Shown here one piece after another: positions 18,001-24,000 of a stretch of DNA of 47,837 nucleotides. Position numbers: made by a program. The first letter of the stretch is position 1; every line of letters starts with the position of its first letter. The stretch is from a virus (taxonomy: Duplodnaviria; Heunggongvirae; Uroviricota; Caudoviricetes): the IMG/VR virus record IMGVR_UViG_2713896798_000007; one strand, written 5' to 3'.

Positions 18001-21000
18001 ACACCTGTTGTGGTGAAGCCGTCGGATGGAGAGGGCACAGTAATCAGCGCCACCAGAGACCCGGAGTATTACTTTGTTGTGGTTCTGGCGGGGCAGTCAA
18101 ACAGCATGGCATATGGTGAAGGCCTTCCGCTGCCGGAGACATATGACCGTCCGGACCCGCGCATTAAGCAGCTGGCGCGTCGCAGTACGGTGACACCGGG
18201 CGGTGCCGCCTGTAAGTATAACGACATCATTCCGGCGGACCATTGTCTGCATGATGTGCAGGACATGAGCCGCCTTAACCATCCGAAAGCGGACCTGTCA
18301 AAGGGGCAGTACGGTACCGTGGGGCAGGGGCTGCATATTGCCAAAAAACTGCTGCCGTTTATACCGGCGAATGCGGGCATTCTGCTGGTTCCGTGCTGTC
18401 GTGGTGGTTCAGCGTTCACCACCGGAGCCGATGGCACATACAGTGACGCTGGCGGTGCCTCGGAGAATTCAACCCGCTGGGGTGTGGACAAGCCGCTGTA
18501 TAAGGACCTTATCGGTCGAACAAAAGCAGCACTGAAGAAGAATCCGAAAAATGTGCTGTTTGCCGTGGTGTGGATGCAGGGGGAATTTGATTTTGGCGGT
18601 ACGCCGGCAAATCACGCAGCACAGTTTGGTGCGCTGGTTGATAAATTCCGTGCAGACCTGGCGGATATGGCAGGTCAGTGCGTCGGTGGCTCTGCTGACG
18701 GTGTTCCCTGGATATGCGGGGACACGACGTATTTCTGGAAGCAGAAGAACGAATCCTCGTACCAGACGGTGTACGGCAGCTACAAAAACAAAACGGAAAA
18801 GAATATCCATTTCGTACCGTTCATGACGGATGAGAACGGGGTGAATGTGCCGACGAACAAACCGGAAGAAGACCCGGACATTCCGGGTATCGGATATTAC
18901 GGTTCGAAATGGCGTGACAGCTCAGCCACCTGGACGTCACAGGACAGGGCGAGCCATTTCAGTTCATGGGCTCGCCGCGGGATTATTTCCGACCGTCTGG
19001 CAACGGCGATTTTGCGCCATGCGGGAAGAGTGGCGCTAAACGCGGGGGCATCATCGACAGTATCAGAGGTGCGCCCGTCATCGCCTTCCGGTGCAGAAGC
19101 CACAGGCGTCACAACACTGCTCTCTTACCTTGCCAGCGAGTCAGAGGGAAGCCTGAAAGTACAGGGATGGTCAGCCAGTGGCGGCAGGGCAGAAGTGGTC
19201 AGCGATGCGGAGGGAACCGGAGGTAAGGCAGTGAAGCTGACCAAGGAAGCCGGTAAAAGCAGCTGGGTGCTGGAGTACGCCGCGGGCAACGGTGCGGCTC
19301 TGTTACAGAAAGGGGGGCAGATTCGCTGCCGCTTTAAGGTTTCGGGAGCGCTGGCTGCGAACCAGTATGTTATGGCGTTTTACTGGCCGGTATCTTCACT
19401 GCCACAGGGCGTTGCCCTGACCGGAGACGGGGGGAATAACCTGCTGGCAGCGTTCTACATCCAGACAGATGTAAAAGACCTGAATGTGATGTACCACAAT
19501 GCGAAAGTGGCGACAAACAACCTGAAACTGGGAACCTTTGGCGCATTTGATAACGAATGGCATACGCTGGCTTTCCGCTTTGCCGGGAATAACAGCCTTC
19601 AGGTGACGCCGGTTATTGATGGTCAGGATGGCACACCGTTCACGCTGACGCAGTCACCGGTCAGTGCATTTGCGGCGGATAAACTGCATGTGACAGACAT
19701 TACCAGGAATGCGACTTACCCGGTGCTGATTGACAGCATTGCGGTGGAAGTGAACAACGCGGATGCCGCGGCATGATAAAAAAAGCCGCCAGTTGCCTGA
19801 GACCTCTGGCGGTGTGAGATTCATGGAGAATCAAGGAAAGATACTACCACTTTCGTCATCGGCATTTTTAAATGAAAACTGTTTACTTAGTCAACCATAA
19901 CGGTAAGAAATTATGACATTTATTCATCAGCTGATGCTGTACTTCTGTACGGTGGTCTGTGTGCTGTATCTCCTTTCGGGTGGGTACAGGGCCATGCGTG
20001 ACTTCTGGCGCAGACAGATTGACAAAAGGGCCGCTGAGAAAATCAGCGCCAGTCAGTCAGCCGGAAGCAAACCCGAAGAGCCGCTCATTTAGCGGCAACT
20101 TTCTTAATCACATCTTTCGACGAGAAAATCCCATGTCAGAAATTACATCCCTGGTCACTGCTGAGGCAGTGAAGGAAGTCCTGCGCTCTGAAGAAGTCCG
20201 GAGTGCACTGAAACAGAAACTCCGCCAGAATCTTGAGTCGCGTCTTGATGGTAACCGGCTCATTTAAACCGTCTGGTCTGTTTCCTCCGGCTCTACAAAA
20301 ATAATGTCCATCATTTTTAATGGACACTATCGTATGAAACACCGGACCTGGATCACTGAAGCTTTACGTCTTCACTTTGAAGAACATTTACCCCGGGTTG
20401 TGGCCGGGCGTCGCCTGAGTGTACCAAAATCAACAGTTTGTAGTATGTTCGTGCGCTTTCGGAGAGCTGGCCTTTCGTGGCCTTTGCCCGCAGGCATGTC
20501 GGAGCAGGAACTTGATGCCTGCCTTTACGGACAATTTTCCACGGTACCAGTCGTACGTCCTGAAAGCACCGTTATATCCGAAGCCCCCGTGGTAAAAAAA
20601 CGTCCCCGGCGGCCCAACTTCCCTTATGAGTTTAAAATCGCCTTAGTGGAGCAGTCACTACAGCCCGGAGCCTGTGTGGCGCAGATCGCCCGGGAAAACG
20701 GAATCAACGATAACCTGCTCTTCAACTGGCGCCATCAATACCGGAAAGGTGGCCTGCTGCCTTCCGGAAAAAATATGCCGGCACTGCTTCCCGTGACGTT
20801 AACGCCGGAGCCGGATAATAAAATCCCGGCCCCCGCACAGGAACCAGAGCAGATAAATACACCGTCCGACAGTCTGTGTTGTGAGCTGGTTCTGCCGGCC
20901 GGAACTCTCAGGCTTAAAGGTAAACTGACGCCGGCGTTATTACAGACACTTATCCGCGAAATAAAAGGGAGCAGCCACTGATGATATCTCTCCCTGCAGG

Positions 21001-24000
21001 TTCGCGTATCTGGCTGGTTGCAGGTATCACCGATATGCGAAATGGCTTTAACGGCCTGGCATCAAAAGTTCAGAACGTCCTGAAGGATGACCCGTTCTCC
21101 GGACACCTGTTCATCTTCCGCGGACGCCGGGGTGACCAGATAAAAGTGTTGTGGGCTGACAGTGACGGACTGTGCCTCTTCACCAAACGCCTGGAGCGGG
21201 GCCGCTTCGTCTGGCCAGTCACCCGTGACGGCAAGGTGCACCTTACTCCGGCTCAGTTATCCATGCTTCTTGAAGGTATCAACTGGAAGCACCCGAAACG
21301 AACGGAACGCGCTGGAATCCGCATATAACCCGTTGTAAAGTGAGGATATGGACACCTCACTTGCTCATGAGAACGCCCGCCTGCGGGCACTGTTGCAGAC
21401 GCAACAGGACACCATCCGCCAGATGGCTGAATACAACCGCCTGCTCTCACAGCGGGTGGCGGCTTATGCTTCCGAAATCAACCGGCTGAAGGCGCTGGTT
21501 GCGAAACTGCAACGTATGCAGTTCGGTAAAAGCTCAGAAAAACTTCGTGCAAAAACCGAACGGCAGATACAGGAAGCACAGGAGCGAATCAGCGCACTTC
21601 AGGAAGAAATGGCGGAAACGCTGGGTGAGCAATATGACCCGGTACTGCCATCCGCCCTGCGCCAGTCTTCAGCCCGTAAACCGTTACCGGCCTCACTTCC
21701 CCGTGAAACCCGGGTTATCCGGCCGGAAGAGGAATGCTGTCCTGCCTGTGGTGGTGAACTCAGTTCTCTGGGATGTGATGTGTCAGAGCAACTGGAGCTT
21801 ATCAGCAGCGCCTTTAAGGTTATCGAAACACAACGTCCGAAACAGGCCTGTTGCCGGTGCGACCATATCGTGCAGGCACCAGTACCTTCAAAACCCATTG
21901 CACGCAGTTATGCCGGAGCGGGGCTTCTGGCCCATGTTGTCACCGGGAAATATGCAGACCATCTGCCGTTATACCGCCAGTCAGAAATATACCGTCGTCA
22001 GGGAGTGGAGCTGAGCCGTGCCACACTGGGGCGCTGGACAGGTGCTGTTGCTGAACTGCTGGAGCCGCTGTATGACGTCCTGCGCCAGTATGTGCTGATG
22101 CCCGGTAAAGTCCATGCTGATGATATCCCCGTCCCGGTCCAGGAGCCGGGCAGCGGTAAAACCCGGACAGCCCGGCTGTGGGTCTACGTCCGTGATGACC
22201 GTAACGCCGGTTCACAGATGCCCCCGGCGGTCTGGTTCGCGTACAGTCCGGACCGGAAAGGTATCCATCCACAAAATCACCTGGCCGGTTACAGCGGTGT
22301 GCTTCAGGCCGATGCTTACGGTGGTTACCGGGCGTTATACGAATCCGGCAGAATAACGGAAGCCGCGTGTATGGCTCATGCCCGGAGAAAAATCCACGAT
22401 GTGCATGCAAGAGCGCCCACCTACATCACCACGGAAGCCCTGCAGCGTATCGGTGAACTGTATGCCATCGAGGCAGAGGTCCGGGGCTGTTCAGCAGAAC
22501 AGCGTCTGGCGGCAAGAAAAGCCAGAGCCGCGCCACTGATGCAGTCACTGTATGACTGGATACAGCAACAGATGAAAACACTGTCGCGTCACTCAGATAC
22601 GGCAAAAGCGTTCGCATACCTGCTGAAACAGTGGGATGCACTGAACGTGTACTGCAGTAATGGCTGGGTGGAAATCGACAACAACATCGCAGAGAACGCC
22701 TTACGGGGAGTGGCCGTAGGCCGGAAAAACTGGATGTTCGCGGGTTCCGACAGCGGTGGTGAACATGCGGCGGTGTTGTACTCGCTGATCGGCACATGCC
22801 GTCTGAACAATGTGGAGCCAGAAAAGTGGCTGCGTTACGTCATTGAACATATCCAGGACTGGCCGGCAAACCGGGTACGCGATCTGTTGCCCTGGAAAGT
22901 TGATCTGAGCTCTCAGTAAATATCAATACGGTTCTGACGAGTCGCTTACTCTTGATGCAGAAGTGGATGCTATTCTGGATGAACTGCTCGGCGCACCGGC
23001 AGTTCCTGAGCCGGAAGGTATCGCGGGTGAGGGGAGTGCTTCAGATGGCGGTGAACCCACACCTGACAGCGACATGATGATGTAAGCATGCGCAAGGGGC
23101 CATCGGTGTGTGCCGGTGGTCTTTATATTGTTGTGAGCTTCCGGATTGCGGGAGACGGGGTATGTACCAGATGGAAAAAATCACAACAGGTGTGTCATAC
23201 ACCACGTCAGCGGTGGGAACGGGCTACTGGTTCCTGCAGTTGCTGGACAGGGTTTCCCCGTCTCAGTGGGCGGCAATAGGCGTGCTGGGGAGTCTGCTGT
23301 TTGGGCTGCTGACATATCTGACGAACCTGTATTTCAAGATTAAAGAAGACCGGCGTAAGGCGGCACGGGGAGAGTAAGCTGATGAGCAGGAAACTCCGCT
23401 ATGGTTTATCGGCTGCCGTTCTGGCGCTGATTGCCGCAGGTGCTTCTGCGCCTGAAATCCTCGACCAGTTTCTGGATGAAAAGGAAGGTAACCACACCAC
23501 GGCATACCGTGATGGTGCGGGTATCTGGACCATCTGCCGTGGAGCCACCCGGGTGGATGGTAAGCCTGTGATTCCTGGCATGAAGCTGTCGAAGGAAAAA
23601 TGCGACCGGGTTAACGCTATCGAACGGGATAAGGCGCTGGCATGGGTGGAGCGTAATATAAAAGTTCCACTGACCGAGCCACAAAAAGCAGGTATCGCGT
23701 CATTCTGTCCGTACAACATTGGTCCCGGTAAGTGTTTCCCGTCGACGTTTTACAGACGAATTAATGCAGGTGATCGAAAAGGTGCCTGCGAAGCTATTCG
23801 CTGGTGGATTAAGGACGGTGGCAGGGACTGCCGTATTCGCTCAAATAACTGTTACGGTCAGATATCCCGTCGTGACCAGGAGAGCGCGCTGGCGTGCTGG
23901 GGAATCGACAGATAAGAAGAATATTTTGCTGAAAAATGAGGTTTGCTTACATGGACGGATAACACGAAATCCTGCAAATTGGCAAAATGTAAGTGAATAA

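Follow-up and report, generated by a model that had tools for sequence, protein, structure and literature searches.

A complete ISCro1-family insertion sequence with an 8-bp target duplication interrupts a DUF826 gene in the late region of a lambdoid prophage

The 47,837-nucleotide stretch of DNA filed as IMG/VR virus record IMGVR_UViG_2713896798_000007 (hereafter the window) is, by its gene content in profile searches, a lambdoid prophage, and within its late region an insertion sequence (IS) of the IS66 family divides a small gene coding for a DUF826 protein. Very probably a single ISCro1 element (or a near-identical isoform), complete and apparently functional, transposed into codons 37–39 of this gene, in the late (lysis) region of an apparently stx-negative lambdoid prophage of an attaching-and-effacing-type Escherichia coli. 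No evidence contradicting the insertion itself was met. The event is a textbook example of simple insertion by a known and very common IS, and nothing but its site is without precedent in the collections searched. The sequence-only reading of the window had described an IS66-family insertion with an 8-bp target duplication splitting a small acidic phage gene, and independent evidence for this now comes from identical copies of the element, from their boundaries and from the empty site in related prophages.

The element occupies positions 20251–22949 (+ strand), in agreement with the coordinates and the length of 2699 bp first assigned to it. Its left end begins with GTAACCGGCTC and its right end closes with GAGTCGCTTAC. 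Directly abutting both ends, TCTTGATG is present as a direct repeat, the left copy at 20243–20250 and the right copy at 22950–22957, and the sequence of the insertion junction is CTTGAGTCGCGTCTTGATGGTAACCGGCTC. The probability of an 8/8 match at two fixed positions by chance is 1.5e-5. The 8-mer occurs five times in the 47.8-kb window, and of these occurrences only the pair starting at 20243 and 22950 abuts the element ends. The duplication was produced by the staggered 8-bp cut and fill-in typical of the IS66 family. The terminal inverted repeats, GTAACCGGCTCATTTAAACCGTCTGG at 20251–20276 (+ strand) and GTAAGCGACTCGTCAGAACCGTATTG at 22924–22949 (read on the − strand), are imperfect, as had been noticed from the sequence: in the comparison of GTAACCGGCTC... 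with GTAAGCGACTC..., 18 of the first 26 positions are identical, and both ends begin with GTAA. Terminal inverted repeats of the IS66 family are in general imperfect, about 20–30 bp long and start with 5'-GTAA.

The boundaries were compared with those of eight other copies situated at unrelated sites in complete genomes, the flanks of which were read by DNA alignment. The left and right termini were the same in all eight, including the first and last ten bases, and seven of the eight copies were bordered by a perfect 8-bp duplication, each of a different sequence. These duplications were CTAAAATC for the copy in phage PPwrbA_EC3734, AAAGCAAA for the copy of strain A1 lying in a SopA-family pseudogene, CGCTCAAC for a copy in a gpJ tail gene, AAACATGC for a copy beside dacD, and TCGCATCT, AACAAAAC and CAACCACT for the copies L040, L041 and L043, respectively. 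The repeats in the window do bound the inverted repeats of the element, the opposite of which would have told against the interpretation.

The interrupted gene is divided into a 5' part at 20133–20250 (+ strand; codons 1–39), the DNA of which is identical to the intact gene in E. coli 13E0725, and a 3' part at 22958–23085 (+ strand; codons 40–81 and the stop codon) coding for an acidic tail. When these two parts are joined, with the element and one repeat copy removed, they restore the acidic reading frame of 81 amino acids that had been proposed across the junction, with an isoelectric point of 4.13 and 18 aspartate and glutamate residues against 7 lysine and arginine residues. The restored frame matches the Pfam family DUF826 (PF05696) over its full length (profile positions 1–75 of 75; E = 6.8e-44; 148.3 bits with a cut-off of 25). 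A homologue of the restored frame, the absence of which would have told against the insertion, is thus present both as this profile match and as an identical intact gene in 13E0725.

Related prophages lacking the IS, with which the sequence-only reading had proposed a comparison, show the precise empty site in E. coli 13E0725 and in the Shiga toxin (Stx) phage P13374. The prophage segment of 13E0725 is 99.8% identical to the left flank over 17000–20250 (3.25 kb), and its intact gene, WP_001290233.1 ('DUF826 domain-containing protein'), has a DUF1378 gene on one side and a class II holin gene on the other; the restored protein is 100% identical to WP_001290233.1. Both flanks of the window align to 13E0725 without mismatch over the gene, and TCTTGATG, duplicated in the window, is present there only once, exactly at the point where the flanks meet. 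The protein of ORF49 of phage P13374, which carries Stx2, is 94% identical to the restored protein, and its gene has the same single TCTTGATG site. The DUF826 genes of Stx and Stx-like lambdoid phages, ORF49 among them, are thus 94–100% identical to that of the window and situated in the same place between the DUF1378 gene and the holin gene, but they are uninterrupted, whereas the gene in the window is broken after codon 39.

In the window the frame of the 5' part runs into the IS and reaches a stop codon at 20265–20267, inside the left inverted repeat. The product would be a protein of 44 amino acids ending in GNRLI, composed of 39 native residues and five encoded by the IS. The severed acidic C-terminal half contains 11 aspartate and glutamate residues and no lysine or arginine. 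The main consequence of the insertion would be the loss of the DUF826 product.

The element contains three IS66-type open reading frames (ORFs), as reported from the sequence alone, and Pfam and NCBIfam profiles identify them as TnpA, TnpB and the DDE transposase. All three are intact and co-oriented with one another and with the phage late genes. The first, tnpA (20304–20981, + strand), codes for the long, 225-residue form of the IS66 accessory protein TnpA, with matches to Pfam HTH_Tnp_1 (E = 1.8e-14) and NCBIfam NF038385 IS66_access_TnpA (293.9 bits; cut-off 150). The second, tnpB (20981–21328, + strand), codes for an accessory protein of 115 residues matching Pfam TnpB_IS66 (PF05717; E = 4.7e-40) and NCBIfam NF033819 IS66_TnpB (128.9 bits; cut-off 50), and its ATG shares one base with the stop codon of tnpA (TGATG). 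The start of tnpC (21348–22919, + strand) lies 19 bases past tnpB. This gene codes for the IS66-family DDE transposase of 523 residues, which matches Pfam DDE_Tnp_IS66 (PF03050; E = 2.5e-103) over profile positions 1–283 of 284 and the equivalog model NF033517 transpos_IS66 at 477.9 bits (cut-off 180), and includes also the domains zf-IS66, LZ_Tnp_IS66 (a leucine zipper) and DDE_Tnp_IS66_C. The element has all the defining features of the IS66 family that can be examined in silico, and its assignment to that family is independent of the name ISCro1.

Of 5,426 complete E. coli genomes searched by megablast with the whole 2699-bp element, 3,018 gave matches, and in 1,493 at least 80% of the element was covered at one place. 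Many of these E. coli copies are 100% identical across element positions 1–2699. The greatest number of places in one genome was 34, each matching at least part of the element. Full-length copies with 100% identity are found also on plasmids, and altogether 1,399 plasmid records, from Escherichia, Shigella, Salmonella, Klebsiella, Citrobacter and others, carry the element at a coverage of at least 80%. The sites of the identical copies are many and different, a distribution which would be consistent with an element able to transpose. In the NCBI Prokaryotic Genome Annotation Pipeline (PGAP), the transposase of identical copies is named 'IS66-like element ISCro1 family transposase' (WP_000381395.1), while TnpA and TnpB are WP_001299364.1 and WP_000624622.1; the ORF coordinates are the same, those of tnpA included.

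In gene order, ends and 8-bp duplication the element of the window is the same as these copies named as ISCro1 family, and there is no structural difference between them. Other members of the family resemble it to varying degrees. IS679 and IS66, the characterised members, share with it the order tnpA–tnpB–tnpC, imperfect terminal repeats beginning with GTAA and an 8-bp target duplication; they are different members of the family, and the left end together with the N-terminal part of TnpA forms a distinct module in ISCro1. ISEc8, an IS66-family element common in the Stx phages of O157:H7, likewise occurs inside lambdoid prophages, but its identity with the element of the window is about 71% and extends over only about 870 bp of the transposase gene. 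Alignment with close relatives, of 94–98% identity, begins only at element position 414. Approximately the first 100 residues of TnpA fall outside the short-form model NF047595 and inside the long-form model NF038385. The left 413 bp (20251–20663, corresponding to TnpA residues 1 to about 120) look like a module that may be exchanged among IS66 relatives.

Some observations weigh against the reading of a standard ISCro1 copy with its duplication. The eighth of the other copies, L042 in E. coli E110019 (NZ_CP035751.1, 475362–478060), is otherwise complete and has no duplication, with CTTTGGAA on its left and GGTTATTT on its right, so that duplications are not universal. The usual cause of a missing duplication is later recombination between IS copies, and the case of L042 suggests a rearrangement between copies at that locus. 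By the convention of ISfinder, elements sharing at least 95% nucleotide or 98% protein identity are regarded as the same element. The specific name ISCro1 rests on the family-level naming of identical copies by PGAP, and the exact 35-nt left end was present in no Citrobacter contig of the GTDB representative genomes. When these genomes were scanned with that end, nearly all matches were contig ends of a single draft assembly, Escherichia sp. MOD1-EC7003, from which duplications could not be paired. One contig of a metagenome-assembled genome in the same scan was exactly 2699 bp long and began at the left end, which is weakly consistent with the length of the element. ISCro1 received its name in Citrobacter rodentium ICC168; with 24 copies there, it has expanded more than any other IS of that genome (PMC3072379). 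An ISCro1 copy in E. coli of sequence type 131 (ST131) is given as 2,824 bp (PMC8764528), in comparison to 2,699 bp in the window and in all the copies inspected.

The sequence-only reading had regarded the insertion as relatively recent, and this is supported as probable. The element has no mismatches to other copies, the duplication is perfect in all eight positions, and the left junction was not spanned anywhere in the 5,426 complete E. coli genomes. The exact 40-nt junction was absent also from the GTDB representative genomes, and the truncated products (44 and 40 amino acids) had no exact match in an index of 153 billion genes. In E. coli SCPM-O-B-9504 the segment corresponding to the left flank is 99.8% identical, the DUF826 protein over it being known by annotation only, and the chromosome has 11 places matching the element elsewhere. 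Because of the perfect duplication, the lack of mismatches and the absence of the junction from the collections, the observations fit a transposition that would be evolutionarily recent and strain-specific.

Two other origins of the present arrangement were weighed. An old, decayed IS relic fixed in the prophage lineage would not be surprising in general terms, as the prophages of pathogenic E. coli often contain IS remnants, and nothing more specific speaks for it. It is, however, highly improbable here, since none of the three ORFs is damaged and all are identical to the widespread form, the duplication has not decayed, and the junction is missing from the complete E. coli genomes while close relatives carry the empty site. 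Arrival of the IS by some route other than simple transposition, i.e. by homologous recombination, as part of a larger composite element or as a chimera of the assembly, finds a precedent in L042, which shows that recombination between copies does occur. Nevertheless, a precise 8-bp duplication of a sequence that occurs once at the empty site is the hallmark of transposition, both flanks are collinear with the same prophage region, and the window holds only one copy of each element end, which together leave such a route very little probability. Assembly chimera, composite transposon and ancient relic were accordingly rejected on the precise duplication, the collinear flanks and the intact, identical ORFs.

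The insertion lies between the nanS-p-like esterase gene (17830–19776, + strand; DUF1737, SASA esterase and DUF6645 domains), an upstream gene of the late region, and the class II holin gene (23162–23377, + strand; Pfam Phage_holin_2_1; start taken from the annotation of the identical 13E0725 region). This is the location first described, and also the DUF1378 gene (19913–20092, + strand) is included in the interval, directly upstream of the DUF826 gene. The holin gene is the first gene downstream of the insertion and starts 205 bases past the right repeat copy. Further upstream, a Q-like gene (DUF1133, 15614–16288; weak Phage_antitermQ match) is followed by terminator-like hairpins at 17365–17728, which are situated upstream of nanS-p. 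Between the DUF826 stop codon and the holin start there is a 13-pair hairpin followed by a T-rich tract (23095–23124, + strand), and because its part up to approximately 23110 is conserved in uninterrupted relatives, this hairpin is native to the phage and not made by the IS.

Possible polar effects on late transcription had been suggested in the sequence-only reading, and they are the weakest part of its interpretation. In the strong form of this idea, a polar effect of the insertion, in which holin, lysozyme, Rz and the morphogenesis genes would be blocked or much reduced and the prophage would be defective in lysis, is unlikely, though clearly less so than the alternative origins considered above. 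In its favour, 2.7 kb of foreign sequence now separate nanS-p from the holin gene, and an untranslated gap of 243 nt extends from the tnpC stop (22919) to the holin start (23162). Also the precedent of afaA speaks against low polarity, although in a different context: in ST131 an ISCro1 insertion upstream of afaA, in the promoter region, lowered the afaA transcript by 2.5 log2 units (PMC8764528). That case, however, is one of a promoter separated from its gene and not of read-through within an operon. In the window the IS points in the direction of the late genes. Within 20251–22949 a consensus scan gave no convincing intrinsic terminator on the + strand, where the only match was a weak stem of 6 pairs belonging to the right inverted repeat. 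The holin gene has retained its own start region, which is identical to that of the uninterrupted relative. The late genes of lambdoid phages are transcribed by an RNA polymerase that Q has modified, which is resistant to both intrinsic and Rho-dependent terminators. Because the Q-like gene lies upstream of the hairpins that precede nanS-p, the polymerase should already be antiterminated when it reaches the IS, and late transcription would then continue across the element to the holin, lysozyme and Rz genes with no severe polar effect. A strong polar effect on the late genes thus appears unlikely, given the co-orientation of the IS, the lack of a convincing terminator on the same strand and the position downstream of the Q-type antiterminator region.

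The location of the co-oriented element inside a Q-antiterminated late operon raises also the speculative, and on balance rather doubtful, idea that induction of the prophage could drive a read-through burst of tnpA, tnpB and tnpC. Transposition would in that case be coupled to the SOS and lytic response, and the phage, if it can still be packaged, could carry an active IS to new hosts. Any effect of induction on the tnp genes would be transcriptional only, because the DUF826 frame stops already in the left inverted repeat.

The remaining gene content of the window begins with the integrase gene (1–1236, − strand), followed in order by an exonuclease VIII-like gene, a repressor-like gene with a helix-turn-helix domain and the replication genes. 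Downstream of the holin gene, the phage lysozyme gene (23382–23915, + strand) is followed in order by the antirepressor, Rz, terminase, portal, protease–capsid fusion, tape measure, J and tail fibre genes. An ORF of 266 amino acids at 46850–47650 (+ strand) has a full-length match to Peptidase_M85 (E = 4.8e-107), the zinc protease of the NleC type that degrades NF-kB p65, and, as this ORF is located downstream of the tail fibre genes, the cargo of the prophage includes a type III effector gene.

No ORF of at least 120 amino acids was found in 16975–17830, corresponding to the place of stx upstream of the esterase gene in P13374, although no explicit search for stx was run. The gap between the Q-like gene and nanS-p, where stx would be situated in an Stx phage, contains Rfam matches to two small RNAs: STnc100 at 17427–17620 (+ strand; Rfam 146.8 bits, gathering score 47) and, adjoining it, the anti-GcvB sponge AgvB at 17621–17682 (− strand; 96.5 bits, gathering score 56). 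A weaker, sub-threshold Rfam match to AsxR overlaps AgvB. A tRNA-like remnant is present at 17281–17340 (+ strand), with 37.3 bits to the Rfam tRNA model over model positions 7–64 only. ARAGORN called no tRNA anywhere in the window, and PGAP annotates the identical sequence in 13E0725 as a tRNA-Met of 71 nt. Stx phages carry tRNA genes upstream of stx, of which the remnant is probably a degenerate copy. An ORF of 138 amino acids with an ORF6N domain (16559–16975, + strand) is intact in the window; for its counterpart in 13E0725, within the 99.8%-identical segment, the annotation gives a truncated pseudogene.

In the annotation of the region, an ISCro1-family IS should be given with its 8-bp duplication, and the two fragments of DUF826 should be combined into a single disrupted gene. 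Its absence from the 5,426 complete E. coli genomes makes the insertion a potential strain-specific marker. It also provides a natural knockout of the conserved gene DUF826, which adjoins the lysis cassette of Stx-type phages, and if the prophage is still inducible, this gene would be dispensable for lysis.

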